Notes: a model not told the origin generated them from the letters alone. Shown: positions 13,093 through 56,156, counted from the stretch's first letter. The stretch: DNA of 64,000 bases from an uncultured Bacteroidales bacterium (GCA_963779845.1 CAVZZV010000005.1:879427-943426), one strand, 5' to 3'. Made by a program: numbers and translations.

Positions 13093-13243
13093 TTTTATAA
13101 AATTTTTATGTTCAAATTTACAATAAAAATGTTCACCTGAAAAAATATTAATGACAGTGAAATGACACACGGGAGGGAGAGCAGACCGGTGAGTTTTAAA
13201 CCGTAATTAATATTTAATATTACTTTTTTCATAATTTTTATTG

Positions 13244-19545: not shown

Positions 19546-19588
19546 TCCTGTTTTTTTATTATTAATTCTAACAAATTTAACCATTCCC

Positions 19589-26762: not shown

Positions 26763-28253
26763 CTATTGGTACCCCGGATTCTGCTCCAAACTTCCGTTGG
26801 AGGCAGCAATTTCATTATTTGGGATAGGTAAAAGCACATGATAATCCTCTATATTCTCTCTCGGTATTGCTAAAATTGGAGAAGTAGAATTCCGGATTGT
26901 CTCCACAAATATTCCCCAACGAAGCAAATCATATCTACGATGACCCTCAAAACTTAATTCAGTCGCTCTTTCTTTTCTGATAGCAAGCCGAAAATCCTCC
27001 TTACTTAATCCGGAAAGGTTTGTTATTCCTGCACGTTCCCGAACCAAATTAATAAATTGATAAGCATTGGCCGGGCCATTCAATTCATTTTCAGCCTCTG
27101 CGCGCATTAAAAGCACATCAGCATATCGAACTACATATTGATTATTCGCACTATTAAAAGGAATTGGCAAAACACCGGATTCCGGATTATGATATTTGCC
27201 ACTTATAGGACCTGCTCCCGGTGTTGTAGTTGACACAAGCACCCATCCATTTACCGTAGTTACAAAACTTATTGCAAGCCTCTTGTCACCAGGTTCAAAC
27301 CAATCCCCAAAATCGGGAAGGGGCATTATGTTTTCAAAACCCCCGTAATGATTAGTGTTTCCTCCAATTCTTTTATCACGCGACCCGGTTTGTTGGGTAG
27401 TTGTATTTCCTCTTTCGTCAAAAGCAAATTGTACATCCCAAATATTTTCGTTTACCAATGCGCCATCTTTATCAGGAAATAATTGGTGCTCATTTTGCCA
27501 TCCAAACAATTTGTTATAATCAGCAATAAGGCCAAATTTTCCTGAATTAATTATGGCATCACATTGTTGAATAGCCAACGCCCATTTTTTTTCTGTTAAA
27601 TATGCTTGTGCCAGAATTCCTGCAGCAGTCCATTTGGTAACTCTCCCTTTTTCTGCATCACCATATGAGTCCGGTAAGTCAGGAAAAGCCTCAAGCAAAT
27701 CCTTTTCAATGAGCGCATAAACTTCAGTGACTGGTGAACGGGTTATACCTTCAAGTGCTCCTGCTCCATCCAGTACTTTATCAACAATAGGCACATCTCC
27801 ATATTTTCTAACAAGTCCAAAATAATAATAAGCACGCAAAACTTTTGCCTCAGCTACCAATCTTTTTTGAAGCGTTTTATCTATTTCTTCAATTAAAGGG
27901 ATATAGGCAATTGCCGTATTACATCTGGAAACGCCACCATAAGCTTCCTGCCATAATGAATTACAATCATCATTAAATCCATTGAGCCCAACAAAGTAGG
28001 TTAACGGCCGTTTGTTATGAAAACCCTGGAATGAGAAATCACTGGGTACAACCGAAACATAATACTCCCTTGGACTGGTGAATAATTTTGAATATGCAGC
28101 AGTAGTTGCAGCAATAGCATCTTTCTCAGTTTTCGGAAAATTCTCAGGTGATAAAAAACTTTGAGGATTTTCGGTAAGTATGTCTTCGCAAGAAGGTAAT
28201 ACAATGCTGGTTAGAAAACCAGCAATTATTAATATTTTAAATGAATTTTTCAT
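26763..28253 (-). CDS. SusD/RagB-family outer-membrane glycan-binding lipoprotein
   Basis: The ATG at 28251-28253 gives MKNSFKILIIAGFLTSIVLPSCED (lipoprotein box). The TPR-like SusD pattern is present (LRAYYYFGLVRKYGDVP, RYADVLLMRAEAENEL, ERATELSFEGHRRYDLLRW). It lies directly downstream of susC. Confidence 0.9.
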   Translation of the reverse strand: MKNSFKILIIAGFLTSIVLPSCEDILTENPQSFLSPENFPKTEKDAIAATTAAYSKLFTSPREYYVSVVPSDFSFQGFHNKRPLTYFVGLNGFNDDCNSLWQEAYGGVSRCNTAIAYIPLIEEIDKTLQKRLVAEAKVLRAYYYFGLVRKYGDVPIVDKVLDGAGALEGITRSPVTEVYALIEKDLLEAFPDLPDSYGDAEKGRVTKWTAAGILAQAYLTEKKWALAIQQCDAIINSGKFGLIADYNKLFGWQNEHQLFPDKDGALVNENIWDVQFAFDERGNTTTQQTGSRDKRIGGNTNHYGGFENIMPLPDFGDWFEPGDKRLAISFVTTVNGWVLVSTTTPGAGPISGKYHNPESGVLPIPFNSANNQYVVRYADVLLMRAEAENELNGPANAYQFINLVRERAGITNLSGLSKEDFRLAIRKERATELSFEGHRRYDLLRWGIFVETIRNSTSPILAIPRENIEDYHVLLPIPNNEIAASNGSLEQNPGYQ

Positions 28254-28272: not shown

Positions 28273-28690
28273 TTAGAAATCAAGCTTTACTCCAACGGTA
28301 TAGGATTTTAAAGTTGGGTCCTGAGAATGATCATACCCTCTTTTGGTATTATCAATACCCCTGCTAATTTCAGGATCATACCCGCTATAGCTATCAAATA
28401 ATAACACATTATTTCCGGCAATGTAAAGCTGGACTGATTGTAACCAATTTATTTTTTGAATCGGAAGGTTATACGATAATCGAATATCCTGTAATCTTAA
28501 AAAAGAACCATCTTCGACAAAACCTGAATTTGATACATTCATTGGTCTTGTAAATCCATCTACCGATGGAATATTTGTAGAGGTATTATCAGGTGTCCAT
28601 CGGTTAACAAATTTTCTGTAAACGTTATTATCTAAAGCTTGCTCAAGTAAACGACCTGATTCATTATATATTTCGTTACCATACTACAAA
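28273..28690 (-). pseudogene. Detached 3' end of the SusC-like gene (out of frame with 28676-31588)
   Basis: The frame reads GNEIYNESGRLLEQALDNNVYRKFVNRWTPDNTSTNIP...SGFVEDGSFLRLQDIRLSYNLP...YTVGVKLDF*. These are the canonical last beta-strands of a SusC barrel, ending in F. Confidence 0.8.
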
Positions 28691-31588
28691 TGAGAAATAT
28701 ATATACAAATCAAATGCTTTGTATGTAAATCTATTACTCAGTCCACCAAAAAAATCAGGGTCAGCATACCCAATAATTTTACGATCCAGGGTTTCGCTAA
28801 TAACTTTATCACCATCTATATCTTTATACCTTTTACCTCCGGGAAATACTGCAAAACCTGTTAAACCCGATTCATCAATCTCTTCCTGGGTATTCCAGAT
28901 TCCCTCCATTTCCAATCCATAAAAAGTACCAATGGGCTCCCCTTCCTTAATTATACCAGATGCTCCACTCCAGGTAAAACTATTATTGAGTATATATCCT
29001 TCAGGTGCAATAATACTTACAATTTCATTTTTATTTGTAGAAATATTAAAATTGGTTATCCATCTAAAATCCCTACTATTAATATTTGTAGAAGTTAGGG
29101 AAAACTCGAAACCTTTGTTGGAAACTGTTCCGAAGTTAGTTAGTACAGATTCGAAACTAGTTAGCCACAATAGTGGGACATCAACCAGTAAATCCTTGGT
29201 TAATTTATCGTAGTAGTCAGCAGTGATTTGCAATCGATTATTAAAAAACCCCGCATCAATTCCAACATCAAACTGGGTTGTACTTTCCCATTTAAGATCA
29301 GGATTTCCCAAGGTATTGGCAGCAATTCCCGATACCAGGTGCTGATCCACACCAAAAATGTAATTATTGCCTCCCGGGGCTAATTTCGTTAAGGAAGCAC
29401 CTGGGTCAAGACCCGGGTTTCCTAATACCCCATAACTAGCTCTAAACTTTAAGTTGTCAAAAATGTTAAGGTTTTTAATAAATTCTTCATTTCCAGCTTT
29501 CCATGCAATTGCTGCAGAAGGAAAAAGTCCCCATTTATTATTGGCGGCAAATACAGATGCTCCGTCCATTCTTGCTGATACAGTTAAAAGATATTTATTG
29601 GATAATCCGTAGTTGGACCTGAAAATAAAGGATTCCAGACCACTATTCGTTAAATTCGAATTGGCATCAGACCTTTCTGCTGCTGCAGCTAAATTATTAA
29701 ACGTAAACGCATCTGATACAAAGCCTCTTGCCTGAACCAAATTAGATTTCGATTCTATGGTCTGTCTGGTATATCCAAATAATCCGCTAATGTTGTGTTC
29801 TCCAAATGTTTTAGAATAATTTAAAGTATTTTCAATAATCAGATCCAGGGTTTCGTTATTGTTTATGGTTGCTGTACCCTGATAATTTTGTTGATCATAT
29901 AAAGTTGAGGGGTCATACCTGTTCCGGGTACCATTTTGTAAATTTGCTCCAACATTCAACTTATATGTCAATCCATCAATAATTTCATATTCACCAAAAA
30001 TGGTTCCCAGAAGTTTATTAGTTGTGGTAATATCTATGGGTAATTCAGAGAGGGCAACCGGATTATCACTACTCAGTTCTGCTAATTGAATTTGTTGAGT
30101 ATAATTGCCCTCCTCGTCATAAACAGGTAACGTTGGATCCCAGCCTATCAAATTTTTTATCCCAATTCCAAATGAACCCGGAGTATAATTTCTTCTGCTA
30201 ACAATTAATGAATTCCCTAATTTAAGCTTATCAGATATCTTATGATCAGTATTTATTTGAAAGTTATAACGCTCAAGGCCGCTATTAATAGATATACCTT
30301 GCTGATCAAAATAGTTTCCCGACAGGAAATAGGTATGTTTATTATCCCCTCCTGATATGGATAAGTTATGGCTGGTCATGGGCACGTTTTCACGATACAC
30401 TTCCTTTGCCCAATTGGTACCTTCTCCATAAGAATCCGGATTTGGATACATCTCTGAACCCTTTGTTTCATTTTGAAAAGCGGCAAATTCACTTGCGTTC
30501 ATTACAGGGATATACCTGGAGGGAGACTGGAATGAAATATAAGAATCATAAGAAATTCTTGTTTTCCCTTCTTTTCCTCTTTTTGTGGTAATTAAAATTA
30601 CCCCGTTTGAACCTCTTGACCCATAAATTGCTGTTGCAGAGGCATCTTTCAATACTTCTATAGATTCAATGTTATTCATATTTACATCATTCAAACTAAA
30701 ACCTCCGATATATCCGTCAATAACATACAAGGGTTCATTATTAGCTGAGATTGAGTTACTACCCCTGATTCTGATTGAAGTTTGTGCACCTGGATCTGAA
30801 GAAGTTGGTATAGCCTGTAATCCAGCAATTTTCCCTTTTAATGCCTGATCCACGCGAAGTACATTAGTAGAATTTAACTCCTCCGTCTTGATTGATCCAA
30901 CGGATCCGGTTATATCACTTTTTCTAACTGTTCCATAACCAATAGCAACCACCTCATCTAATCCAATAGCATCGGCAACCAGTGAAACATCAATGGTGGT
31001 TTGATTGCCAACTGCTACTTCCTGCGTTGACATTCCCACAAACGAAAATACCAATGTGGCATTTTCAGGAACATCCTCGAAGGAGTACTTCCCCTCCATA
31101 TTGGTAACCGTACCATTGGAGGTTCCTTTAAGAACAATTGATACCCCTGGCAGCGGTTGGCCATATTCATCGGTAACGGTTCCGGAAATGGATTTTTGCT
31201 GGAGTTTACCTTCTGATTTTATATCACTGGCATCCATTATAACTACATACCGATCAATAACTTCGTATCGAACTTTTTCAGGAAGTGTATTATCCAGAAT
31301 TTCTTCCACTGTCTTATTCTTTACATCAAGAGTTACTTTCTGATTCGGATCGAGTTTTGAACTCGAGAAGGCAAATCTGAACTCTGTTTGATTTTCAATT
31401 TTCTGAAACATCTGCTGATAGGTTATTTCAGTGAATTTTAAAGTGAGTTTGGTACTCTGTGAGTAAATACTCGCAGAAACCATCACGGTTGGGAACAATA
31501 AAATGAAAGTAGTTAGTTTCATAATTTTTACAATTCTTCGAAACAGAGAACGCTCATCCCCTGTTAGGAAAGGGTTTCTTTTTTTCAT
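28676..31588 (-). CDS. SusC/RagA-family TonB-dependent transducer (STN domain), interrupted by one frameshift near the 3' end
   Basis: The ATG at 31586-31588 gives MKKRNPFLTGDERSLF. An STN signalling domain follows (LKFTEITYQQMFQKIENQTEFRFAF...VRYEVIDRYVVIM). Then come a CarboxypepD_reg-like region (ISGTVTDEYGQPLPGVSIVL), the TonB box/plug (DEVVAIGYGT) and the barrel. The frame stops at ...DLYIYFSFVVW*, where paralogs read ...GVYGN. Confidence 0.88.
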   Translation of the reverse strand: MKKRNPFLTGDERSLFRRIVKIMKLTTFILLFPTVMVSASIYSQSTKLTLKFTEITYQQMFQKIENQTEFRFAFSSSKLDPNQKVTLDVKNKTVEEILDNTLPEKVRYEVIDRYVVIMDASDIKSEGKLQQKSISGTVTDEYGQPLPGVSIVLKGTSNGTVTNMEGKYSFEDVPENATLVFSFVGMSTQEVAVGNQTTIDVSLVADAIGLDEVVAIGYGTVRKSDITGSVGSIKTEELNSTNVLRVDQALKGKIAGLQAIPTSSDPGAQTSIRIRGSNSISANNEPLYVIDGYIGGFSLNDVNMNNIESIEVLKDASATAIYGSRGSNGVILITTKRGKEGKTRISYDSYISFQSPSRYIPVMNASEFAAFQNETKGSEMYPNPDSYGEGTNWAKEVYRENVPMTSHNLSISGGDNKHTYFLSGNYFDQQGISINSGLERYNFQINTDHKISDKLKLGNSLIVSRRNYTPGSFGIGIKNLIGWDPTLPVYDEEGNYTQQIQLAELSSDNPVALSELPIDITTTNKLLGTIFGEYEIIDGLTYKLNVGANLQNGTRNRYDPSTLYDQQNYQGTATINNNETLDLIIENTLNYSKTFGEHNISGLFGYTRQTIESKSNLVQARGFVSDAFTFNNLAAAAERSDANSNLTNSGLESFIFRSNYGLSNKYLLTVSARMDGASVFAANNKWGLFPSAAIAWKAGNEEFIKNLNIFDNLKFRASYGVLGNPGLDPGASLTKLAPGGNNYIFGVDQHLVSGIAANTLGNPDLKWESTTQFDVGIDAGFFNNRLQITADYYDKLTKDLLVDVPLLWLTSFESVLTNFGTVSNKGFEFSLTSTNINSRDFRWITNFNISTNKNEIVSIIAPEGYILNNSFTWSGASGIIKEGEPIGTFYGLEMEGIWNTQEEIDESGLTGFAVFPGGKRYKDIDGDKVISETLDRKIIGYADPDFFGGLSNRFTYKAFDLYIYFSFVVW

Positions 31589-31617
31589 AAATTTGCATGT
31601 TTTAGTTAATAAAATTG
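30940..31617. repeat. Dispersed repeat: susC leader plus STN/N-terminal extension (partner 40990-41683)
   Basis: Near-colinear nucleotide similarity by eye (about 85-90 percent). It runs from the DEVVAIGYGT-encoding box to 29 nt upstream of the susC ATG. Confidence 0.8.
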
Positions 31618-31679
31618 ATTCAATTTTCCGGGCATCGTCGGTTGCAACGACTTTGCCCGTTTTTATTTTCATTCATCCT

Positions 31680-32642
31680 TTATACATTTAATTTTTTGAT
31701 TTTCACATCCTTTCCCTCAAACCTGTAAACAAAACCATTTGCTTTTGCAATTACCTTAAGAATGGTTTCAAGCGATTCGTATTCTTCAAACTGAACCGTG
31801 AGTGTCTCTGAGTTAAATAATAGAGGATCATATTCTATATTTATGTCATACCATTTTTCGAGCCTCGTAATAACCTCATCGAAAGGGGTTAAACGGAATA
31901 TCAGTTGATCATTTTTCCATGCCAACTCAAGATTCTTATCAAAAGAATTAATCTCACTCGAGGAGGTGTTTTTATTATAAACCAGTTGCTGGCCAGGTTG
32001 TAATAGTTCATCTTCCCTTCCAATTTTCACATCAACAGAACCTTTAATCAGCGATGATTTAATCTTCGAACTCTCCGGATAAGCTGAAACAATAAACCGG
32101 GTACCTAAAGCTGTTGTAACTAAATTGCCTGAAGCCACTTCAAAAGGCAATTCCTGGTTTTTCACCACCTCAAAATAAGCCTCCCCTTCCACTTCAATCT
32201 TTCTGGACTTTACTCCATAGTCTACCGGATAACTCAATTTAGTATCTACATTTAGCCATACTTTTGAACCATCGGGGAGTATTACGCTGGTTTGTTCTCC
32301 TTTTTGAGTAGTAAGCACAAGCATCCCCCTGGCAACAGTTTGGCTGGTATAAAGATAGAGTGCAGCGGCAAGCAGGGGTAAAAACAATATTGCTGCTGCC
32401 CTAACCAAAACTATAAAGAAGCGATTCCTTACTGAGATTATAACCGAATTTCTGATTTTTTCCCGTATCTGTTCAAACTTTAATGCCACACTTTCATTTT
32501 GACTCTGTTGCCAGTTTGCTTCCAGCCAGGTAAAAATTTCTTTTTTATGGTGGATATTATTGAAATATTTATCCAATGAGTTTAACTCATCGTTTGTTAA
32601 TCTCTTCCCGGAAAGAAATTTGCTGATTAGGTTCTCCTGCAT
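31680..32642 (-). CDS. FecR-family anti-sigma factor
   Basis: The track start is GTG. The ATG at 32640-32642 gives MQENLISKFLSGKRLT. There is a single TM segment (FFIVLVRAAAILFLPLLAAALYLY). A FecR/DUF4974-like periplasmic part follows (LIFRLTPFDEVITRLEKWYDINIEYD). It lies immediately upstream of an STN-bearing susC. Confidence 0.88.
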   Translation of the reverse strand: MQENLISKFLSGKRLTNDELNSLDKYFNNIHHKKEIFTWLEANWQQSQNESVALKFEQIREKIRNSVIISVRNRFFIVLVRAAAILFLPLLAAALYLYTSQTVARGMLVLTTQKGEQTSVILPDGSKVWLNVDTKLSYPVDYGVKSRKIEVEGEAYFEVVKNQELPFEVASGNLVTTALGTRFIVSAYPESSKIKSSLIKGSVDVKIGREDELLQPGQQLVYNKNTSSSEINSFDKNLELAWKNDQLIFRLTPFDEVITRLEKWYDINIEYDPLLFNSETLTVQFEEYESLETILKVIAKANGFVYRFEGKDVKIKKLNV

Positions 32643-32716
32643 TCTTATCACTCTAAATTCATTAATTTTGTGTTCAAACCTATATACGTTTGAAAATAAA
32701 CTTTCCGTGACCGGGG
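32619..32716. repeat. Dispersed repeat: first 7 fecR codons plus ~75 nt upstream leader (partner 41681-41777)
   Basis: TTGCTGATTAGGTTCTCCTGCATTCTT...TATATACGTTTGAAAAT.AACTTTCCGTGACCGGGG is present at both places with few mismatches. Confidence 0.8.
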
Positions 32717-32800
32717 AAGTAACTTAAATTCTTTTCTATGAAGATATTTTGCAAAAAACCATGGCTAACTGTAATTCAAAAGAGAATTGTTATGAGCGAA
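32717..32800 (-). pseudogene. Possible decayed 3' relic of an ECF sigma-factor gene
   Basis: The DNA aligns loosely with the last ~25 codons and stop of 41807-42367. Examples are AATTACAGTTAGC vs AATACAGTTGAC, and ATAGAAAAGAATTTAAG vs ATGAAAAAGAATTAAAA. It has indels and in-frame stops. Confidence 0.3.
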
Positions 32801-32857
32801 GATTGGCTTCTCTTTCCACCCCCATGCATAGGTAAATAGAATCCCTCAAATGATTTC

Positions 32858-34057
32858 TTACTTTTTCAGTAATTTCATCCCAAAGCCAGGAGCATCGGAT
32901 ACCCTTAGCTTGCCATTAATAATTGGATATTCTCCAAAATCAACATCATCAGAGAGACAGGTAACACCTTCAATGGTGCATACATTGCCAAGTCCGGCTG
33001 AAAGATGAGCATTGTAATTGGTTTTAAAACGGCTACCCCAGGAATGCGGACTTGCAAGCATATTGATTTTTTTGAGTTCAGGCATCAGCTTCATCCATTT
33101 CGTAAACCCATATCCTATTGTGTCTGCAAGCATTACATCCATCACTTGTTCCTTTCCCAATTCCAGACAAACATCATAATCGGGATCACGTTCACCGTCA
33201 GCATAATAGGTGTTTTCAAAGCCATTGTTGTTCATCCATCTTTTTAATTTTCGACCGGCCTCCAGCTCTTCAAAAAAAGGTTCTTCCATCCAATACAATG
33301 GAACTTCTTGAATTCCCGTTAAAAAGCTTATTGTATCCTCTAAACTATATTTGTCGTTAGCATCAACTAAAACTTTTGTATTTCGGTCTTTAAATGTATT
33401 ATGAACCAGATTAACAACCTCAATATCTTTTTCAAGTCCCTCTTTATGGGGATACCACATACCACTACGCCCGATTTTAACTTTTAACTGGCGGTACCCA
33501 TAATTATAATCCCACTCGCAATTTTCCAGAATTACATCCAAACCTTTGGTTTCATTTCCCGGATTTAGTTCGTCCAGATAGATCATTCCACTGTAAATGA
33601 GAGTTTCTCTGGGTCCCTGATTGCCAATTAATTCATATACAGGCTTATTCAAAATAAGCCCCATTAAATCGTGTAGCGCAATATCCACCCGGCTATCCAA
33701 GGTATCAATAATACCAATACCCGGGGTGATCAGCTCAGAGACTTTTTTATTAAGGATTAAAGGAATAATCTTGTCGGCATTTTTACTAGATACACCCCAG
33801 GCCATTGCTCCCTGATCGGTATATAGTTTTAAAACGGTGTTTTTATGATATTGGCCATGAAAATCCAGTCTGGAATTTTTCCCCACAAATCGTGGCCAAT
33901 GAAACTCAACTTCCGCTAACTCGTATTTATCAATCCTATGTTCCCCAAGTTCCTTAATTTGACGTTCTATTTTTGATGAGCATGACCAAAGAGTCGGAAC
34001 TAAAGTGCTGCCTGCCAGAGCTGCTCCTGATAATTTAATAAAGTTACTTCGTTTCAT
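32858..34057 (-). CDS. Enolase-superfamily (mandelate racemase/muconate-lactonizing-type) enzyme with an N-terminal export signal
   Basis: 399 aa. Motifs LKVKIGR (K-x-K), LVDANDKY, WMEEPF and ADGE (three metal ligands), plus LADT...SPHSWG (D/H dyad). The N-terminus MKRSNFIKLSGAALAGSTLVPTLWSCSS is Tat-like/lipoprotein-like. Confidence 0.8.
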   Translation of the reverse strand: MKRSNFIKLSGAALAGSTLVPTLWSCSSKIERQIKELGEHRIDKYELAEVEFHWPRFVGKNSRLDFHGQYHKNTVLKLYTDQGAMAWGVSSKNADKIIPLILNKKVSELITPGIGIIDTLDSRVDIALHDLMGLILNKPVYELIGNQGPRETLIYSGMIYLDELNPGNETKGLDVILENCEWDYNYGYRQLKVKIGRSGMWYPHKEGLEKDIEVVNLVHNTFKDRNTKVLVDANDKYSLEDTISFLTGIQEVPLYWMEEPFFEELEAGRKLKRWMNNNGFENTYYADGERDPDYDVCLELGKEQVMDVMLADTIGYGFTKWMKLMPELKKINMLASPHSWGSRFKTNYNAHLSAGLGNVCTIEGVTCLSDDVDFGEYPIINGKLRVSDAPGFGMKLLKK

Positions 34058-34099
34058 TTTAGTTTATTTTCGTTGAATTTCTTATATAGGTTCCTGAAT

Positions 34100-36394
34100 T
34101 TAATATTCAAAAACCGCTGCATCAAGCAACTCAATATTTGCCTTTTTATTCGTTGCAATAGTAATTGTATTCTCACCTATTCTCAGGTAATTCATTTCTT
34201 CATCAAAAAGCACATAAAAGTTTATACTCGGTTCTCCGAATCTTGCATCAAGCTTTGTTTTCCTAAATGCATTTCCATTTATTTTAATTTCACTGTCAGT
34301 AAATCCTTTAATAGCCACAGTTGTATTGGCCGGAAGTTTTTCAAGTTCAAATGTTTTGCTAACAGTTATTGGACCTGTAATTTCTGTATTTATGCCGATG
34401 AAATCATTTTTTTCACCAAAAGGGAGATGCACGTTTCTTCCTGTTTCCGATTTCCAAACCGAAGCAAAATCAATTATTGGTTTTAAATCCGGAGCCATAT
34501 AAATGGTTTTATTGATGGCTTTAATATCTTCAATCGGTATTTTAGAAACTTTGCGATCATAGGTTAAATATCCGTTCAGTTCATGCTCCACATCCGTTAT
34601 TTGAGTATAGACTAACCCATTACAACCACTTCCGGCATTTAGACAACGTACAGTTTCAATGAACTTTCGATAGGCATCTTCAAAAATCTCTGGTGTACTA
34701 TAGGTATGTCTTCCGGTCTCTTCAGTGAAACTGTAGCTATCTTTTGGTATAAAATTGTTATGCCCTTTTTGCTCGGGAGGATTTGATTCTGAATACCAAG
34801 TATGCCCGGGTATTGCCAGATTTATTCCTGCCGCTTCACCAATTAACAGTGCTCGTTCTCCATTTAGTTTATAGTCCGCCCCATTATTTCTTGGATAAAA
34901 AGTGTAATCATGCACATCCATTACATCCCCAAAAGCTTCATCGGTCCAACCACTTGCGCAGTTAATAATCCGTGTTGAGTCGTAATTTTTTATCCAGTTT
35001 GTATAAAATCCCGTATTATGCTGGCTCCAGCCTTCATTGAATACAATCCACATTACAATAGAAGGATGGTTGTGCAACCAATCGACCATGGACTTAAATT
35101 CTGTATGCCATTGTTTAGCAGCAGCATCGTCAATGGTTTGTCCATATTTAGGCATGCAGGTCATATCCTGCCATACAAGAAGTCCTAGTTTATCAGCCCA
35201 ATAGTACCAACGATCAGGATGAGTTTTAATATGGACCCGAACCATATTACAACCTATTTTTTTAAGGTATTCGAGATCGAATTTTATTGCCTCTTCCGAA
35301 GGAGGTGTTAAACCTCCATTTGGCCAATATCCCTGATCTAGAGGGCCATACTGAAAAATCGGCTCATTGTTTAAATGAATTCTTCTATAACCATCAGCAG
35401 CGGTTTTAACCTCAATTTTTCGCATTCCAAAATAGCTGCTTACTTCATCTATAACTTTTCCATCCCTTTTCAAAATAACTTTCAGATCGTACAAAAATGG
35501 ATTTTCGGGACTCCAGGCTTTAAATTCCTGAATAGGAATCATTAATTCTTCTCCACTAATTGCAGCCTTTTCTGCCACCAAACTACTTCCATCAAATACC
35601 TGAACTAATAATTCAGATTTACCCGATGTAAGGCTTGTATTTAGTTTAACCGCTGCATTATCGAAATCGGGAGTAATCTTAATATTTTCAATTGAATTTT
35701 CGGGAACCGGTTCAATCCATACCGTTTTCCAAATTCCACCAGTAGGCTGATATCGGAAACCTTGTCGGTTTTCAGGCATAATCTGCTTTCCAATAGCCTG
35801 ACTCTGCCCTTCAGTAGCGTCCCAAACACAAACACTTATTGTATTTTTTCCTGAAACTAAAAAATCTGTAATATTAAAAGTAAAAGGGTCATATCCACCT
35901 CGATGTTGTCCAACTCTTTTCTGGTTTACATATATACTTGTTTCCCAATCGCTGGCTTCCAAATGGAGTAAAATATTTTGTTTATCCCATTTTCCGGGAA
36001 TAGAAAATTCTTTCTGGTACCATAATACCTGATTAGACCTTAAAATTTTTCCAACACCCGACAATGGCGCATCGATAGCAAAAGGAACCAAAATTTTTCC
36101 TTCCCATTCATAAGGAATCTCTCGTGTAGTCCAACTTTTTTCTTTTGTTAAGCCCTGCAGGGGCTCGAATTCATTGGACTCAAGCTTATAATCCCATAAA
36201 CCGTTAAGATTCATCCACTCATCACGAACCATTTGTGGGCGAGGATATTCAGGCAAAGCTTCATTAGGGTTGACTTGTTCGGCAAATTCCGTTTGCAAGG
36301 GTGAGGGTGCCATTTTGAAATCCACCGTATTTGAACATCCTAAAATAAAAAAACCCAGAAAGGCAGATAAAATAGTTAAATTAAAAATTCTCAT
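34100..36394 (-). CDS. GH2-family glycoside hydrolase
   Basis: 764 aa. Lipoprotein signal LGFFILGCSN. GH2 sugar-binding domain pattern (NGLWDYKL, ILLHLEASDWETSIYVNQKRVGQHRGGYDPFTFNITD). The TIM barrel carries WIVFNEGW. Confidence 0.85.
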   Translation of the reverse strand: MRIFNLTILSAFLGFFILGCSNTVDFKMAPSPLQTEFAEQVNPNEALPEYPRPQMVRDEWMNLNGLWDYKLESNEFEPLQGLTKEKSWTTREIPYEWEGKILVPFAIDAPLSGVGKILRSNQVLWYQKEFSIPGKWDKQNILLHLEASDWETSIYVNQKRVGQHRGGYDPFTFNITDFLVSGKNTISVCVWDATEGQSQAIGKQIMPENRQGFRYQPTGGIWKTVWIEPVPENSIENIKITPDFDNAAVKLNTSLTSGKSELLVQVFDGSSLVAEKAAISGEELMIPIQEFKAWSPENPFLYDLKVILKRDGKVIDEVSSYFGMRKIEVKTAADGYRRIHLNNEPIFQYGPLDQGYWPNGGLTPPSEEAIKFDLEYLKKIGCNMVRVHIKTHPDRWYYWADKLGLLVWQDMTCMPKYGQTIDDAAAKQWHTEFKSMVDWLHNHPSIVMWIVFNEGWSQHNTGFYTNWIKNYDSTRIINCASGWTDEAFGDVMDVHDYTFYPRNNGADYKLNGERALLIGEAAGINLAIPGHTWYSESNPPEQKGHNNFIPKDSYSFTEETGRHTYSTPEIFEDAYRKFIETVRCLNAGSGCNGLVYTQITDVEHELNGYLTYDRKVSKIPIEDIKAINKTIYMAPDLKPIIDFASVWKSETGRNVHLPFGEKNDFIGINTEITGPITVSKTFELEKLPANTTVAIKGFTDSEIKINGNAFRKTKLDARFGEPSINFYVLFDEEMNYLRIGENTITIATNKKANIELLDAAVFEY

Positions 36395-36610
36395 AAGTTA
36401 AAATTATAAGTTGTTTAAATTTTCTTTGATTCAATTCTTTTGTTAATCCCTATTGTCTTAACCCACTATAACCTGGACAATATTATAAAAATGGTTCAGT
36501 ACTTCCTTATTTTCAATTAAAATGCACTGCCTTCCACATAGCAGTAGGTTATTGCAAAGAAATAATTTTAAAATTCGCACAGATCGGCTGGAAAACTCAC
36601 CCCAAAAGGA

Positions 36611-36665
36611 TTAGAGAAAAAGAAGTAGAGATTTAATCTCCATGATTGATTAAAACTCTACTTCT
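36611..36665 (-). terminator. Extended hairpin terminator after the decayed susD
   Basis: AGAAGTAGAG (36621-36630) pairs with CTCTACTTCT (36656-36665). An inner TTAATC/GATTAA helix extends the stem. It is followed on the minus strand by TTTTCTC. Confidence 0.5.
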
Positions 36666-36718
36666 CTTAAAAGCTTAAAACATGTTATGCTCCAATCCAA
36701 TATCTCCAATAATACCCA

Positions 36719-38214
36719 CTATTGATATCCATCATTTTGAACTAAATTTTCATTAGCATCAATTTCAGGTTGTGGAATAGGAAATAAACGGTGGAAGGGT
36801 CTGGCCAGGCTTTTCCCTCTATCCAAAGCATTTTGGATGAACCTGTCGTGTCTAATTAAATCCGGCCTTCTTTTTCCTTCACTGTAAAACTCCCAAGCTC
36901 TTTCATCCAGTATTTTATCTATAAAAGTAGCCTGATCCGGAATATCAGTAAGAGTATAATCTTCTAGTCCCGCTCTATTTCTTACCTCATTTAATAAATC
37001 TAAAGCCTCTTGAGAGACAGTACCAGTGGACATTACCAATCCTTCTGATCGGGTTAACAATATTTGGGAATACCTGATATAGGGTACATCCTGACCTCCG
37101 ATTAGTGGATCTGCCGTATCCTCATCAATAGGGTACTTAAAACTCCTTGGATGATTATATTTATCACCTGTTGGTCCTTCGTTTGGATCAAGTAAGTTTA
37201 CAAAAACCCCTTTACTTGAAATATACTCTGTAAGAATCAAATCAGCTCTTTTATCGTTTGCATCAAAGGTGTGGTAAAATGCATCCTGAATAGTTGACTG
37301 GGTTGCAGCATTTACTACACTGGTAGGATAATCTCCCGGAAGCACATTTCGGGTCCAGTTAGATTCCAACTGGTTCAACGTCTATGTTAGGGAAAACATA
37401 AATCATTTCATTATTACCTTCATTATCCAATGCAAAAATATCCGCATAATTAGGCAATAATTGGTAAACCCCTAAATCAATTACTTCTTGAGCTGTTTGT
37501 GCGGCATCACGCCCATTTTTTTGCATTTAACTGAAACTGGGCCAACACGCCTAAAGCCGAACCACGAGTTGCTCTGCCAAATTCAGTTTGCCGGTACTGT
37601 TGTCGGCAGTAACAGGAGCAGCTGCTGTAAGTTCTGAAATCACGAAATCTTCAATCTCCTGAGTTGAGGCACGTTCCGGAAAAAGTTCATTTGTATTCTC
37701 AGTAATCAAAGGAACTCCTCCAAACCAGTCATAAAGAAAATTATAAGCAGTTGCCCTAAGAAATTTAGCTTCCCCCAGATATCTATCTTTAAATGTCCTG
37801 ACTTAATAATGGATGATCTGGAATCAGCCGTCACCAATATATTTGCATCCCTTATAGCCCTATAGTTTTTACGCCAATAATCCTGGATAACAGCAGTCCA
37901 TGCCCAGGATCAAAACTAAAATCCTGATACTTTCTTAGTGTATTATTATAATAAGATCCAATATAATCTTCAAATACATCTGTCGTGCATTCATTTAAAG
38001 CGATATAGTCGGCGGCACCTCCCCATCCATTTAATTGACCATTGGCATAAGCTGAAGCTAAAAGTGCTTCAATACCTTCTTGTGTATCCAAGAAAGCGTC
38101 CCGAAAATTCAGATTTTGGTTCAATTTCTAACGGTTTTTCACAGCTCGATAGTAAAAAGAGCTAATAAACCTAATGGCAAATACTGAATATCTATTTAAT
38201 AATTTCATTTTCAT
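36719..38214 (-). pseudogene. Decayed SusD-family gene (multiple frameshifts and stops)
   Basis: The start MKMKLLNRYSVFAI (ATG 38212-38214) runs into a stop after 28 codons. Fragments at 37852-38124 (EALLASAYANGQLNGW...) and 36719-37378 (...RYSQILLTRSEGL...WEFYSEGKRRPDLIRHDRF...FPIPQPEIDANENLVQNDGYQ*) lie in different frames. Their closest paralog is 54663-56132. Confidence 0.85.
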
Positions 38215-38221
38215 TTTAGTT

Positions 38222-41200
38222 TTAAAATCCTACATTAATTCCTAATTGAAATATCCTTGATGACGGATAAGGCAGTACGATCTAAACGTAGCTCCTGATT
38301 GCCCCAATGAATTAACATCCGGGATCATATCCTGGATAGTCAGTTATCATGAATAGATTCTGTCCTCCAATAAATACATCAAGAGACTTTAAAAAGTTTA
38401 TATTAGTCCATAGGAACAGCGTATGACAACTGCACATTCTTTAAACGAATAAAAGATGCATCTGATACTAAAAAACTGTTGGATTGCGAACCTCCATATA
38501 AACTTGAAGTTTATTGCAGATGGCCATTTATTAGCTTGGATTTTCCGGAGTCCAACGATTAAGCAATGGTTCTGCCAAGCGGTTTCTATAAGTATCATTT
38601 GGGATAAAGCGCATCATATAGTTGCCCAATTCATCAACTCCTGACCTAAAGCCCCATCAACAAATATATTAAGCTTGAAAATTCTTATAACTGAAGTGAA
38701 TTGTTAATACCGAAGGTGAAATCTGGATAAGGATTACCTAAAACAACCCTATCATGCATCAGTAATTTGGTCATCTTTGTTAACATCCAGCCATATTGGG
38801 TTTCCTGGCACTATAGTTCGGTTGAGCAGCAATAGGGTCCTGTCCTTCTTGAAAAATTCCTATTGCTTTAGTCCCGTAGTACGAATAGAGCGCTTCCCCT
38901 GGTTTAATAAGTGATGATATTGGTCGCATTTATATTGGATAATCTCTGGTATATTACCTAAACTTACTACCTCATTTTTAGAGGTTGAAAAATTTAGATC
39001 CGTTGACCATTGCAAAACCCCGGTCAAATTAACGGTACTAAGCATAACTTCTATACCTGAATTATCAACCTGGCCTACATTACTGGCAAGTATTGAAAAC
39101 CCGGAAGTACTTGGTATTGGCAGGTTAAGGAGTAAATCTTTATTTGACTTTTTATAATAATCGATACTTCCTCTTATTCTGGATTTTAAAAAGCCGAAAT
39201 CCAATCCAAAATTCAGCTGTTCAGAAGTTTCCCATTTTAAATCCGGGTTTGGTATCCTGGAAGGAGATACGCCCGATACCTGTTGTCCACCAATAACAGC
39301 AATAGGCACCTCCTGAATAGGTAGCAAGCGCACGTCCAATTCCAATATCATCGTTACCAAGTTGTCCCCAACCTGCTCTTAATTTTAAATCGGAAATACA
39401 TTGAAGAATCTTTCCAGAAATGATTCGTTTATTTATTCTCCAGGCTCCGGAAAAAGAAAGAGAAATAGCCATATCTCTTATTTGCTCCAAAATTGGAAGA
39501 CCCATCAGCTCTTATTGAAGCTGTAAATAAATACTTATCCTCAAAGCCATAATTAATCCTACCTAAATAAGACAACAATCTACGTTCTGAAGCAAAACTA
39601 CCCACTTGATTTAATGCCTGAGTTCCTATCCCTAAATCATTTGTTTCAATAACATCTGAAGCAAATCCCTGGGTTCCAGCAGAAACGGTCCTATTCTCAA
39701 AAGACTGATAGGTGTTTCCTATCAATGCAGTAAATGAATGCTTATCAGCAAACGTTTTAGAATAGGTCAAAATACCTTCTAGCAGCGTATTTGACAATGC
39801 ACCATCTATAATAGTGGCAATACCTCCTGCAGATTCACCTTGTTGAGATATCCTGTTTGAATAAATATCTTTTCGTTTCGTAGTTCTATCAGACCCTAAG
39901 GTGATTTTAGCTTTTAAATCAGGATGTGATGCTATACTCTCCATAAACATTTATGATGGTACGATTAACCTCTTCTTTTACTTTTTGTCCATTTATTAAA
40001 GCATAAGGACTATCTATAGTTAATGCAAATAATCCCATCTTTATCTGGTCTAAAAACACTACCATCATCATTAAAGATAGGATTAACGGGTGGAGTTATT
40101 CAGTGCCAAATAAACGGCATCACCTTGTTGATTAATGGAAAATCCATTTACAGGAACCTGTTTATTCTTTTCAAACGAAGTATTTAATTTAATTCCAAAA
40201 GTGAATTTATCACTAACCTTTTGATCTAAATTCAATCTGAGCCTGATAACGATTGTAACCTGTATTCTTTATAATTCCTTCCTGATCATAGTAACTAATT
40301 GACGAATAATATGAGGTTCCACCTGATTGTCCGGATAAAGATAAATTATGGCTTTGTGTAGACCCTATTTGCAATATCTCATCTTGCCAGTCTGTTCCGG
40401 CTCCTACAGAATTGATAAAATCATCATCAAAAGGCGCTGTAAAACCTCTTTCTATTTCCAATTGGTTCATAACATCAATATACTCTGACGTACTTAATAA
40501 ATCAATTTTTTTTCTAATCTGGGAAACAGAATAGCTCGTGTTATAATTAAATTTAGGACTAGTACTTGTACCACTTTTAGTAGTAATAAGAACTACACCA
40601 TTAGCCCCTCTTGAACCATATATAGCTGCTGCAGAAGCATCTTTAAGAATTTCAATAGATTTAATATCGGATGGGTTTATTGAATTTAAAGGATTGTTCT
40701 GGGGTAATTGACCGTTAAATCCACTATTTAATTCTCCAGTTGCAGTAGAAACGTTGTTAATCGGAAATCCATCTACAACATAAAGAGGTTCTTGACCTGC
40801 CGTTATTGAACCTGTTCCTCTTATTCTAACAGAAACACCACCACCTGGTGCATGGCTTGATTGTGTAATCTGCACACCAGCAGCCCTTCCCTGTAGCAAC
40901 TGATCTACCGAAACTGGATTGACTTGGTTTAAATCATCTTCGTTAAGCGAAACTACCGATCCTGTTAAATCACTTTTTTCTGATCGTTCCATAACCTATG
41001 GCAACTACCTCATCTAACCCAATAGCATCGGTGGCCAGTGAAAACATCTATGGTGGTTTGGTTGCCCACTGCTATTTCCTGGGTTAACATTCCCACAAAT
41101 GAAAATACCAATATGGCATTTTCAGGAATATTCTCCATGGAATGTACTTCCCGTCCATATTGGTCACTGTTCCAATGGAGGTTCCTTTAAGAACGATCGA

Positions 41201-41654
41201 TACCCCAGGTAGCGGTTGGCCATATTCATCGGTAACAGTTCCGGAAATGGATTTTTGCATGTGAGTCTTACCTCTCTGATTTCATATTACTCGTCATCCA
41301 TAATAACTACATACCGATCAATAACTTCATATCTGACTTTTTCAGGAAGCGTATTGTCCAGAATTTCTTCCACTGTCTTATTCTTTACATCAAGATTAAC
41401 TTTCAGATTTGGATCAAACTTTGAACCCGAAAATGCAAATCTAAACTCTGTCTGATTTTCAATTTCCTGAAACATCTCGCTGATAGGATATTCCAGTAAA
41501 TTTTAAAGTTAGTTTCGTGCTCTGTGAGTAGATACTCGCAGAAACCATCATGGTTGGAAACAATAAAATGAAATGTGGTTAGTTTCATAATTTTTACAAT
41601 TCTTCGAAACAGAGAAAGCTCATCCCCTGTCAGGAAACGTTTTCTTTTTTTCAT
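38222..41654 (-). pseudogene. Decayed, mosaic SusC-family gene (at least six frame disruptions)
   Basis: The ORF track splits it into 41403-41654, 41287-41475, 40213-40992, 39429-39950, 39221-39505 and 38860-39360. The end reads ...PSSRIFQLGINVGF* (stop 38222-38224). The N-terminal STN part resembles 28676-31588 at the DNA level. The plug/barrel resembles 56157-59252 at the protein level. Confidence 0.88.
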
Positions 41655-41777
41655 AAATTTGCGTGTTTTAGTTAATAAAATTGCTGATTAGGTTCTCCTG
41701 CATTCTTTTCACACTTCATTCATTAATTTTGTGTTCTGACCTATATACGTTTGAAAATGAACTTTCCGTGACCGGGG
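40990..41777. repeat. Dispersed repeat partner of 30940-31617 plus 32619-32716, with fecR deleted between them
   Basis: See the L1 copies. The junction ...GTTAATAAAATTG|CTGATTAGG... is at 41677-41690. Confidence 0.8.
41681..41703 (-). pseudogene. Seven-codon 5' stump of a deleted fecR gene
   Basis: The minus strand reads ATGCAGGAGAACCTAATCAGCAA (MQENLIS), identical to the start of 31680-32642. It is fused directly to the susC leader. Confidence 0.8.
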
Positions 41778-41806
41778 TTGTGATGTTAAATCCACAGGGC
41801 AAGTTT

Positions 41807-42367
41807 TTAATTCTTTTTCATCTCCAGGCGAATAAAAGCGAGCGCCTTGCGCAATTGGGTGTCAACTGTATTTACGGAAATGTGTAACTTTAACGCAATT
41901 TCTTTGTAAGACAGTCCTTCGATTTTGTTTAGTTTGAATATATTCTTTCTTTTTTCCGGTAATCTTTCAATCAGTGTAAAAATCATTTTTTCCAACTCCG
42001 AATACTCAACCATTGCAAGCGTATTCAAACCGTTTTTATTCCCCCCATTCAATTGGGAGCAAAATTCTTCCAGGTATTTTTGTTTATGCAATCTCTTTCG
42101 CAAAATATCCACGACCATATTTCTGGAAATCGCAAAAAGATAGATTTCTAATTTTTTATCTTCTTTTATTGATTCTCTGCTTAACCAGAGTTTCAGATAT
42201 ATTTCCTGTAATATGCTTTCACAATCTTCACCCAAGGGCAGCACTTTTAGGAGAAATCCTTTTAACTTTCCTTTAGTTCTGTGAAAAATCAATTCAAAGG
42301 CCATTTCATTGCCACCTCTTAATTGATCAATGAGCTCACGTTCAATATCTTTATCGAATCCTGCCAA
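41807..42367 (-). CDS. ECF-type RNA polymerase sigma-70 factor
   Basis: 186 aa. Region 2 (AFELIFHRTKGKLKGFLLK...ESILQEIYLKLW) and region 4 HTH (LSYKEIALKLHISVNTVDTQLRKAL) are present. The start codon is TTG (42365-42367) with a TAA immediately upstream. Confidence 0.85.
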   Translation of the reverse strand: MAGFDKDIERELIDQLRGGNEMAFELIFHRTKGKLKGFLLKVLPLGEDCESILQEIYLKLWLSRESIKEDKKLEIYLFAISRNMVVDILRKRLHKQKYLEEFCSQLNGGNKNGLNTLAMVEYSELEKMIFTLIERLPEKRKNIFKLNKIEGLSYKEIALKLHISVNTVDTQLRKALAFIRLEMKKN

Positions 42368-42550
42368 TTAGCTCAATTTTAAATTATAGTTAGTAATATA
42401 CTAAGTTAAGAAAGTAATTTTAAAATAAAAAGCTTGTCCTTAAGTTTTTGCATTTCCTGGATGAACCAGTTTAGGTTTTCCGTCTGAGACTCATTTTCCC
42501 GGATTGGTAAAGTAAGAAAAAACAGGAGTCAAAGAACAGACTATCACCTT

Positions 42551-43954
42551 TCATTCAGTTCCTGAGGTTTTTCGGTGCCATTCCAATAACCGCCCTGCCA
42601 GTTTCCCCGCGAGATCATCATGCGATCTTACCAGATTACTACGTTCCCCCGGATCTGAGGATAGGTTGTACAGTTGCAGTCCCGTTGAGTCGGTTTCCAT
42701 CAGCAGCTTCCAGTCTCCTGACCTTATAGCCAGCCTGGGAGAAACATACTCCTCTTTTCCAGGTCGCGGATCGTTGACGTAATACCAGTAAAGATCTTTA
42801 GTGCGCGAAAATGGTTCATCAAACCAGGCGGAGCTTACATCTTCACCGTCTAGTTCCTGATCCAATGGAAGCGGGGCATTGACCAGGCTACATAGAGAGG
42901 GAAAGAGGTCAGCGGCTGAAAAAACCGTTGTGCTATCCCAGGCATTTTCCCTGATGTGCCCAGGCCATGAAATGATAAATGGCATGCGACAGCCTCCTTC
43001 GTAAAGGCTCCATTTTCGACCGAAAAAGGGACCCGTGCTGCCCGGAGGCAGGTATCCTTCCTGGTAATACTCCGGCCAGTCCGTCGGACCGTTGTCGCTG
43101 GTGAAGATGATGATCGTGTTATCAATGATCCCCATTTTCTCCAGCCCGCGGAGGAAACGCCCTATCTCCTGGTCGAGATGGTCCAGTACAGCAAGAAATT
43201 TCTGCTCATAGGGATTGTCCGTAATCCCGGCATATTTTTCCGCCTCTCCCTCTGCCGGAAGTAAAGGATCATGGACATCATAAGTCCAAAGGTTGACATA
43301 CAAGGGCTCTTTTCGGTTCCTGGAGATAAAGTTCAGGGCACTATCCACCCAAATGCCGGTAAGCTGATGTTTGTGATCAACCCAGTATGCCTTGCCAGGG
43401 GTGGTCTGGGCTGATATAGAATCATAATGCTCCCCCACCATACAAAGTTTATCTCCCATACTGTATTTATCGGTCAGAGCCTTATCATATCCGAATTCTT
43501 CCGGCATGGGGGCATCGTCAATGCCTTTGCCGCCACCAATATGCCATTTGCCAAAATGACCCGTCTTATAACCAAGCTTCTTTAATTGTCTGGCCAGGGA
43601 AGGAGCTTCCGGAGGCAGGTAATCCGCCATGTTTCGCTCCAGGTTAGACTCACGGGTAAAAAAATAAGAATTCACCCTCCAGCGCGCAGGAAACTGCCCT
43701 GTAATAAATGACACGCGGGATGGCGAGCAAACGGGAGAGTTGACATAGAACTGGGTATAAGAGGTACCCGTTTCGGCCAGCCTGTCCAGGTTAGGTGTAT
43801 TGATCAATTCATTGCCATAACAGCTCAGGTCCCCATACCCCAAATCGTCAGCTAAAATAAGGATGATATTGGGACGAGGCGCATTTTCATTTGAATTTTT
43901 GGAGAGGCATCCTGTTAAAAGGAATGTTATGAGTATTATCCACGTGTATTTCAT
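42551..43954 (-). CDS. S1-family sulfatase (G+C-rich paralog of 24644-26113)
   Basis: 467 aa. Lipoprotein signal ITFLLTGCLS. Motifs ILADDLGYGDLSCYG and VCSPSRVSFITGQFPARW. Confidence 0.92.
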   Translation of the reverse strand: MKYTWIILITFLLTGCLSKNSNENAPRPNIILILADDLGYGDLSCYGNELINTPNLDRLAETGTSYTQFYVNSPVCSPSRVSFITGQFPARWRVNSYFFTRESNLERNMADYLPPEAPSLARQLKKLGYKTGHFGKWHIGGGKGIDDAPMPEEFGYDKALTDKYSMGDKLCMVGEHYDSISAQTTPGKAYWVDHKHQLTGIWVDSALNFISRNRKEPLYVNLWTYDVHDPLLPAEGEAEKYAGITDNPYEQKFLAVLDHLDQEIGRFLRGLEKMGIIDNTIIIFTSDNGPTDWPEYYQEGYLPPGSTGPFFGRKWSLYEGGCRMPFIISWPGHIRENAWDSTTVFSAADLFPSLCSLVNAPLPLDQELDGEDVSSAWFDEPFSRTKDLYWYYVNDPRPGKEEYVSPRLAIRSGDWKLLMETDSTGLQLYNLSSDPGERSNLVRSHDDLAGKLAGRLLEWHRKTSGTE

Positions 43955-56132: not shown

Positions 56133-56156
56133 TTCATTTATTTATTAGTTCGTTAA

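Follow-up and report, generated by a model that had tools for sequence, protein, structure and literature searches.

Here we describe the signalling genes of a polysaccharide utilisation locus (PUL) in an uncultured Bacteroidales bacterium. They lie in a stretch of 64,000 nucleotides (GCA_963779845.1 CAVZZV010000005.1:879427-943426), which is called the window throughout; the scope of the analysis is this one 64-kb window, and the coordinates of all features described refer to the minus strand. The genes in question encode an extracytoplasmic function (ECF) sigma factor, a FecR-like anti-sigma factor and two SusC transporters with an N-terminal STN signalling domain. A leader of about 100 nt and the 5' region of susC are present twice, at two places named L1 and L2; an ECF sigma gene precedes the leader at L2, and a complete fecR follows it at L1. 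The elements of the two cassettes outside the susC genes are as follows.

41807-42367, minus strand: ECF sigma gene, with a TTG start directly after a stop codon and Pfam matches to Sigma70_r2, Sigma70_r4_2 and Sigma70_ECF.
41674-41777, minus strand: L2 copy of the leader, 91.3% identical to that of L1, with the conserved motif GTCACGGAAAGTTCATTTTCAAACGTATAT at 41743-41772; its junction with the sigma gene is collinear with that of the related locus L001.
41681-41703, minus strand: fecR remnant of L2, read directly as ATG CAG GAG AAC CTA ATC AGC AA, that is ATG plus six codons plus 2 nt.
32613-32716, minus strand: L1 copy of the leader, with the conserved motif at 32682-32711, 39 nt upstream of the fecR ATG.
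31680-32642, minus strand: complete fecR, 320 aa, with Pfam FecR at residues 113-206 and FecR_C at 250-318.

The repeat was measured by BLASTN and piecewise alignments; a global MAFFT alignment wrongly set fecR against the sigma gene. By BLASTN the leader of L1 (32613-32716) matches that of L2 (41674-41777) over 104 nt with nine differences, and the susC 5' region of L1 (31617-30900) matches that of L2 (41683-40955) at 88.6% over 729 columns, with 10 gap openings. Beyond these two blocks, whose offsets are 9061 and 10066, BLASTN found nothing comparable shared by L1 and L2. Relative to L1, L2 lacks 1005 bp, corresponding to fecR from codon 8 on, with the junction at 41681/41680; after the remnant it resumes at the sequence found, in L1, 27 nt ahead of the susC ATG, and the remnant reads through as an 11-codon mini open reading frame (ORF) that ends before the susC2 ATG. 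The deletion junction carries a 3-nt (CAA) microhomology inside an imperfect direct repeat, AATCA(G)CAA(A)TTT, which appears as AATCAGCAA/ATTT against AATCAA/TTTT, the slash marking the junction.

Between the two cassettes 11% of positions differ; of the codon differences, 44 are synonymous and 30 non-synonymous. Between L1 and the L2 repeat, once the latter is corrected for the inserted bases treated below, the ratio of non-synonymous to synonymous divergence (dN/dS) is 0.135 and dS is 0.37 (about 29% raw difference), without stops. The derived amino-acid changes number eight in L1 and nine in L2, and both SusC N-terminal copies are under purifying selection. A difference of 11% with a coding-like pattern implies that the two cassette copies are two real loci. 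As for what they encode, the STN domain of the duplicated SusC N-terminus scores 29.1 bits as an isolated domain (cut-off 28.4), and eight of eight cassette homologues also match; within the whole protein, where CarboxypepD_reg, Plug and barrel follow, it scores 26.0 bits, just below the cut-off. The STN domains of SusC1 and SusC2 are 90% identical, and a search of PDB sequences with the STN profile gave no significant match. A preliminary description of this DNA, made from the sequence alone, had reported an intact sigma gene, a complete fecR, a leader and an STN-encoding susC 5' region common to both copies, and no more than the first seven fecR codons at L2; alignments and domain searches bear it out on these points.

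The sigma protein, of 186 aa, matches Sigma70_r2 (E 6.5e-8), Sigma70_r4_2 (E 2.2e-16) and Sigma70_ECF, which fits an ECF (group 4) sigma-70 factor. FecR has a hydrophobic stretch, FFIVLVRAAAILFLPLLAAALYLY, at residues 75-98, as expected of a single transmembrane segment dividing a cytoplasmic from a periplasmic part, and its orthologues are 317-327 aa long and 60-71% identical to it. Such orthologues served to fetch the loci L001, L002, L003, L046/L047, L048 and L049, among which L001, L002, L046/L047, L048 and L049 are five independent cassette loci, L047 being a second contig of the L046 locus. Every fetched locus that covers the upstream sequence has the order sigma-fecR-susC(STN)-susD, with a sigma factor 67-73% identical to that of the window; in other loci the identity of sigma and FecR to their counterparts in the window is no more than 26-38%. 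The sigma gene directly adjoins fecR in four of the five independent loci. In L002 about 1.1 kb (8869-9990), with two short ORFs of 111 and 138 aa, separates the sigma gene from the conserved motif and fecR, and from this locus the sigma-fecR spacing appears to be already variable in the family.

Since their orthologues stand together as sigma-fecR-susC in five independent loci, the sigma factor and FecR of the window are a cognate pair. In the window 9.2 kb separate the sigma gene from fecR, against a single locus for all three genes in the five orthologous loci. The 64-kb window holds only one sigma and one FecR homologue, and given that both come from one cognate family, it would be natural to read them as pairing in trans across the 9 kb, as the preliminary description had presumed. 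The ancestral arrangement, which it had left to comparative genomics, is seen in these five independent relatives as one locus. Moreover, the sigma-to-leader junction of L2 is collinear with that of L001 (score 22, reached by 0 of 300 shuffles), so L2 keeps the ancestral arrangement on this side.

The transporter that now stands beside fecR is composite. Its structure is best followed against two loci that hold orthologues of its body.

28273-31588, minus strand: susC1, L2-like up to about codon 230 (signal peptide, STN, CarboxypepD_reg), with a Plug and barrel orthologous to those of L050 and L051.
30895-30968, minus strand: recombination junction in susC1, corresponding to about 40950-41025 in L2; the identity switches within one 75-nt interval.
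26763-28253, minus strand: susD1, intact, directly downstream of susC1 and orthologous to the SusD of L050 and L051.
L050: JGI metagenome contig, 87% nucleotide identity to the window over 31201-26756.
L051: Sunxiuqinia sp. A32, 81% nucleotide identity to the window over 30973-26770.

By sliding identity, L1 is 86-94% identical to L2 and 35-77% identical to L050 upstream of about 30900, whereas downstream of this point it is 48-65% identical to L2 and 81-96% identical to L050. The switch is sharp, within one interval of 60-75 nt at about 30900, and the junction encodes DEVVAIGYGT.RKSD.TGSV immediately ahead of the Plug, a stretch with 68-81% identity among all the SusC genes compared. Close homologues of the L1 Plug and barrel have 1107-1110 aa and are 92%, 86% and 84% identical. 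L050 and L051 each have their own upstream sigma and FecR, 27-33% identical to those of the window and to each other's. Because these loci carry unrelated sigma/FecR/STN sets, the L1 transporter must once have had a different regulatory set, which an L2-type cassette displaced; the native L1 sigma gene, as far as the alignments tell, is gone without trace. The module has a dS of 0.37, against 0.56 for the split from the L050 lineage, so that the cassette copy is younger than that split. As assembled, susC1 carries a single extra T at 28681 that neither L050 nor L051 has; it shifts the frame 130 codons before the natural stop, and without it the gene is intact.

What lies upstream of the L1 leader bears on how this cassette arrived.

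32717-32857, minus strand: spacer of 141 nt at the left (non-homologous) edge of the L1 cassette copy, claimed to hold a sigma relic.

The preliminary description had taken about 85 nt of this spacer (32717-32800) for degraded sigma 3' sequence. On this basis it proposed that a full sigma-fecR-susC 5' cassette was duplicated, that L1 then lost the sigma gene and L2 lost fecR, and that regulation passed in this way from a dying to a living transporter. The cassette is indeed present twice, fecR is absent from L2, and a tandem duplication through unequal crossing-over between two SusC genes would copy the sigma gene too. The spacer, however, shows no resemblance to any sigma gene, whether at the DNA level or against a profile. 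In Smith-Waterman comparisons with the L2 sigma gene, with the 3' ends of orthologous sigma genes and with the sigma regions of L050 and L051, no local alignment stood clear of shuffles; the best match, to L050, was reached by nine of 200 shuffles and fails correction for three targets. Alignments anchored at the leader boundary score 0-4, against 22 for the L2-L001 control, and the ECF-sigma profile gives negative bits in all six frames of the spacer, against 48.9 bits for the equivalent stretch of L2. Furthermore, the homology between L1 and L2 starts only 5 nt upstream of the conserved motif. Together with a spacer that is not sigma-like, this leaves the loss of a sigma gene from L1 unsupported. 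The relic, which was expected to align with sigma genes, does not do so, and the claim falls; of the reciprocal losses, the deletion of fecR from L2 stands, and there is no sign that a sigma gene was ever part of the L1 copy. The unrelated sigma/FecR/STN sets beside the L1-body orthologues also speak against this account, as they indicate that L1 began as a different system.

The conserved motif, GTCACGGAAA-N8-TCAAACGTAT, spans 28 nt and forms two invariant blocks in the multiple alignment upstream of fecR. It is exact in six of six fetched loci that include the upstream region (representing the five independent ones), and within the window it occurs only at 32682-32711 and 41743-41772, where a 30-nt leader core is found exactly twice against 0 expected. 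It precedes fecR by 39-65 nt in every locus examined, and likewise in the two copies of the window; at L2 it now stands 89 nt upstream of the susC2 start, with the remnant ORF in between. The leader differs at nine of 104 positions, against about 29% raw difference at the synonymous sites of the adjoining repeat, which argues that it is constrained in both copies. The textbook ECF promoter pattern is AAC-N16/17-CGT, and the spacing of the motif blocks does not map cleanly onto it. Matches to the Bacteroides housekeeping -33/-7 pattern were no more frequent than expected by chance, with none ahead of the sigma gene, and an Rfam scan of 30500-43000 found no RNA family. From its conservation in all orthologous loci with upstream sequence, the motif is a probable sigma-dependent promoter heading both copies, in line with the candidate promoter region of the preliminary description. 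Its position between the sigma and the anti-sigma gene matches the place where the sigma-dependent promoter is expected in B. thetaiotaomicron (PMC2709373).

The SusC/SusD pair of L2, in turn, looks heavily broken.

38221-41654, minus strand: susC2, STN-CarboxypepD_reg-Plug-barrel; its 5' 700 nt (41683-40955) belong to the repeat, its body from about 40950 is orthologous to L052-L055, and it carries about 30 single-base insertions.
36719-38208, minus strand: susD2, directly downstream of susC2, with single-base insertions down to 37361; corrected, it encodes 492 aa without internal stop.

In the two genes there are about 42 single-base insertions and no single-base deletions, all confined to 41574-37361. 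Counting that of susC1 at 28681 there are about 43, and the other genes of the 64 kb show no visible breaks. The body of susC2 together with susD2 (41014-36722) is 80-82% identical at the nucleotide level to the intact SusC/SusD pairs of L052 (a metagenome chromosome), L053 (Gaoshiqia hydrogeniformans), L054 (Arenibacter) and L055 (Hanamia). In the comparison with these four, 33 insertions are private to the window, 32 of them 1 nt long and the other 2 nt, beside a single in-frame deletion of 3 nt, while the four orthologues together have one private insertion and five deletions; the 5' repeat of L2, compared with L1, adds 11 more inserted bases and again no deletion. The inserted bases (C11, T9, A8, G6) have a G+C content of 50%, against 39% in the genome, and equal a neighbouring base in 10 of 34 cases. 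Inserted bases beside private substitutions, the signature of a two-haplotype consensus, number 4 against 3.4 expected. The private substitution rate of the window, 0.051, matches those of L052 and L053. Once the insertions are taken out, neither SusC2 (923 aligned residues, ending GINVGF) nor SusD2 has an internal stop, and both are 87% identical to L052 and L053; dN/dS of the L2 body against the intact orthologues is 0.085-0.087, within the 0.069-0.095 of orthologue pairs. The flanks are clean: such insertions are absent from the sigma gene, from the GH2 and enolase-superfamily genes and from the final 640 nt of susD2.

About 40 frameshifts under neutrality should have brought many substitutions, stops and deletions with them, and as none of these is seen, natural decay is disfavoured. 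The L2 frameshifts and the single one of L1 are, from their spectrum, most likely assembly consensus errors rather than gene decay; a very recent and very unusual mutational burst may be an alternative source of the L2 insertions. A second, intact susC2 was sought in the protein database and only short fragments came up, in a search that also missed known homologues of 83% identity. The dying SusC/SusD pair of the preliminary description does not, then, survive the comparison. The L2 frameshifts as assembled had spoken for the account of reciprocal losses; against it, there is no relaxed selection at L2, and L1 is frameshifted too. With the spacer and the L1-body orthologues also opposed to it, we regard that account as distinctly unlikely.

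Two further observations concern this pair. SusC2/SusD2 is 80-82% identical at the nucleotide level across Prolixibacteraceae (Gaoshiqia), Flavobacteriaceae (Arenibacter) and Chitinophagaceae (Hanamia), each recipient having a different sigma/FecR/STN head, which implies, on these identities, that the pair has been transferred between families. In L053 the SusD ORF (12742-14233) starts 230 nt later than in L052 and L055 and encodes 415 aa instead of 491-492, suggesting a start-site difference or a lesion in that genome.

If the consensus is unreliable exactly here, more than the reading frames might be affected. A long-read or strain-mixed assembly with poor consensus could conceal a genome with an intact sigma-fecR-susC2-susD2 order, in which the fecR deletion, and perhaps the second cassette, would be a minority variant or a mis-join. 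The insertion-only events, their 50% G+C bases without slippage signature, the normal number of substitutions and the clean reading after correction all agree with such an origin. However, the coding-like difference between the cassettes is not that of collapsed or duplicated reads, the deletion has a clean junction, set between short direct repeats some 100 nt outside the insertion-dense stretch, and the flanking GH2, enolase-superfamily and sigma genes are unbroken. We therefore hold this explanation to be unlikely as an account of the arrangement itself.

The reading that we prefer, with a probability of roughly 60%, is that of an ordinary Bacteroidota trans-envelope signalling set whose parts were redistributed by recombination: the cassette would have been copied from L2 to L1, fecR would then have been deleted from L2, and one sigma factor would serve both promoters. 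A cassette of about 1.8 kb, made up of the promoter/leader, fecR and the first ~230 susC codons, would have been copied from an L2-type locus onto the next SusC/SusD pair downstream. It would have been joined in frame at the conserved pre-Plug motif, displacing the unrelated sigma/anti-sigma/STN set of L1, and the sigma gene was not detectably copied along with it. Later, the 1005 bp with fecR would have been lost from L2 between the short repeats. The outcome would be a lone sigma gene with a single fecR 9 kb downstream of it, and two copies of the promoter, each heading a SusC with a nearly identical signalling domain.

In operation, the sigma gene would be transcribed constitutively, and FecR, made from the L1 operon, would keep the sigma factor inactive. 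Passage of substrate through SusC1, and probably through SusC2 too, would move the STN domain, FecR would be inactivated and the freed sigma factor would transcribe from both motif-bearing promoters, with starts predicted about 7-10 nt downstream of TCAAACGTATAT at 32682 and 41743. The L2 promoter would drive susC2-susD2-GH2-enolase-superfamily, and the L1 promoter fecR-susC1-susD1 and the downstream sulfatases.

Several points weigh against this reading. The sigma-leader junction is the sole evidence for the direction from L2 to L1, and the SusC body of L2 is, by comparison with L052-L055, also non-native to the cassette, with the same break point. The CarboxypepD_reg segment was tried as a pointer to the direction and failed, the L2 N-terminus being also foreign to its body. 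The sigma factor is without an 11-aa hydrophobic C-terminal tail conserved in five orthologues. These (L001, L002, L046, L048, L049) end ...EMK(H/Y)FLSLML(L/W)IYLNN, beyond region 4.2, the tail being ...EMKHFLSLMLLIYLNN; in the window two in-frame TAA codons, six codons apart, stand in the tail region (41778-41822), and the protein ends ...EMKKN with region 4.2 complete. The TAA codons are substitutions, not insertions. Further members of the sigma or FecR family may exist elsewhere in the genome, outside the 64-kb window, which is part of a contig of more than 1.6 Mb. As assembled, susC1 is frameshifted and susC2/susD2 are broken about 40 times, and if this were real no intact transducer would be left. 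An AlphaFold model of the STN domain, built from a single sequence, had too low a confidence to be of use (pLDDT 44.8). In general, confidence is limited by the assembly quality of exactly this region.

Some of these same points could be put together into a system that died recently as a whole: a truncated sigma factor, a fecR kept by chance and two frameshifted STN-SusC genes, in a cluster running on its third SusC/SusD pair (54663-59252) under another regulator. The frameshifts as assembled, the two stop codons of the sigma tail, which cannot be put down to inserted bases, and the presence upstream of an intact SusC/SusD pair without STN would suit it. However, an insertion-only spectrum without substitutions or stops is unlike that of inactivated genes, and fecR, the sigma factor in its regions 2 and 4, the two leaders and the STN domains of both SusCs are all unbroken and under constraint. 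We consider it very unlikely, the least probable of the accounts weighed here, and return to redistribution by recombination in what follows.

The window as a whole is one very large PUL for sulfated polysaccharide, with sulfated algal glycans rich in rhamnose or arabinose as candidate substrates; it is co-directional except for the last gene, with a G+C content of 39% and with all genes of interest on the minus strand. It contains at least 14 sulfatases, a GH106 rhamnosidase, GH2, GH43 and GH51-like arabinofuranosidases, an enolase-superfamily gene and three SusC/SusD pairs; type-IX secretion sorting domains are found in two of its proteins (1088-1981 and 52342-54417). The closest relatives of the window genes are in Prolixibacteraceae (Sunxiuqinia, Gaoshiqia, Draconibacterium, Mariniphaga). 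To judge by L051, L052 and L053, the window was probably put together from at least two ancestral PULs, and the genes 3' of susD1 (sulfatases, GH43) are part of the L1 ancestral PUL, as seen in L051. The third SusC/SusD pair (54663-59252), further upstream in this strand-continuous cluster, is intact; CarboxypepD_reg and Plug are present in its SusC, but no STN. Three ORFs inside the PUL have no Pfam match, 10744-13170 (808 aa), 17938-19584 (548 aa) and 26110-26496 (128 aa), and are candidates for undescribed glycan-active or binding proteins. Between the two cassettes stand two intact genes.

34100-36394, minus strand: GH2-family glycosidase, with Pfam Glyco_hydro_2_N, Glyco_hydro_2 and Glyco_hydro_2_C.
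32858-34057, minus strand: enolase-superfamily gene, Pfam MR_MLE_C, 77% identical to an Algibacter homologue; its stop codon adjoins the 141-nt spacer.

The latter is the gene that had been called enolase in the preliminary description: it does abut L1, but its product is an enolase-superfamily MR_MLE_C protein and not enolase proper. From the surroundings of its orthologues the ancestral left junction of L1 could not be recovered.

In B. thetaiotaomicron the sigma gene has a housekeeping promoter, the anti-sigma and Sus genes are sigma-dependent and autoregulated, and the STN/anti-sigma contacts are system-specific (Martens et al. 2009, PMC2709373). The window shares with these PUL switches an ECF sigma, a FecR/FecR_C anti-sigma, a SusC with STN-CarboxypepD_reg-Plug-barrel, an adjacent SusD and a conserved element between the sigma and the anti-sigma gene, where the autoregulated promoter is expected. 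Unlike them, it has its sigma and anti-sigma genes 9 kb apart with five genes between, one anti-sigma facing two SusCs with 90% identical signalling domains and, beside the anti-sigma gene, a chimeric SusC with a barrel from another orthologous group. The duplicated PULs BT3983-88 and BT4403-07 (PMC2709373) offer a parallel, as duplication there has left two related loci whose promoters are activated by a single ECF sigma. In that case, however, whole PULs were duplicated, each keeping its own sigma/anti-sigma pair, whereas in the window the regulatory cassette only would have been copied, onto an unrelated SusC/SusD, and one sigma and one anti-sigma remain.

A closer counterpart of the L1 chimera comes from the PupB/PupA-PupR-PupI systems of Pseudomonas. 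In the engineered PupBA receptors, as summarised in a review, a signalling domain moved onto a foreign barrel links that barrel to PupR/PupI, and the barrel sets the ligand specificity (Koster 1994, reviewed in PMC9249621). The L1 SusC is likewise a signalling domain on a foreign barrel; but it is natural, a SusC-type glycan transporter, with a swapped piece that includes CarboxypepD_reg, whereas PupBA, in that same summary, is an engineered siderophore receptor. By this analogy, and from sequence alone, the L1 SusC may be the natural counterpart of the PupBA receptor. With FecI-FecR-FecA of Escherichia coli the window shares the logic of a TonB-dependent transducer acting on FecR and this on an ECF sigma; the sequences are only distantly related, the substrate would be a glycan and not ferric citrate, and a SusD partner is present. 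The components are thus ordinary members of known families, and it is their arrangement that is new, with a transplanted cassette, a chimeric transducer and what would be a shared anti-sigma factor.

The same discordance between regulatory head and transporter body recurs in the other loci compared.

L052-L055 (SusC2-body orthologues): body 79-93% identical in amino acids, first 235-240 aa 30-53%, FecR 26-34%.
L050 against L051 (SusC1-body orthologues): body about 80% (nucleotides), FecR 30%, sigma 27%.
Window-type cassette loci: SusC body 13-51% identical in amino acids (mostly 20-45%), first 235-240 aa 51-78%, FecR 60-71%.

These discordant identities of head and FecR against the body indicate that cassette and transporter body have separate histories and are joined at the pre-Plug stretch; their recurrence in eleven independent loci suggests that cassette exchange could be general. 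We tentatively propose, at somewhat less than even odds, that the Bacteroidota sigma/anti-sigma/SusC-N-terminus cassette (STN plus CarboxypepD_reg) is a separately inherited unit, repeatedly swapped between SusC bodies at the GYGT..K.D.TGS pre-Plug stretch, with a rewiring of the links between regulators and glycans. The window would present a fan-in of this kind, in which two SusC/SusD transporters with near-identical heads converge on a single FecR and a single, distant sigma factor. No paper describing such cassette exchange was found in the literature searched, which covers whole-PUL mosaicism (PMC8845570) and duplicated PULs with promoter cross-talk (PMC2709373).

The apparent ruin of susC2 and susD2 is a caution for pseudogene calls, since a pair that looks heavily decayed is, but for insertion-only noise, intact by every evolutionary measure. 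As regards regulation, that of PULs is usually inferred from gene adjacency. The case of L1 and L2 suggests that a SusC sensor head, its anti-sigma factor and their promoter can move as a block to another transporter, leaving the sigma factor far from its partners. If exchange at the pre-Plug stretch were general, it would explain why orthologous transporters are wired to unrelated regulators, it would call for caution in drawing regulons from the nearest sigma gene, and it would offer natural break points for the building of glycan biosensors.

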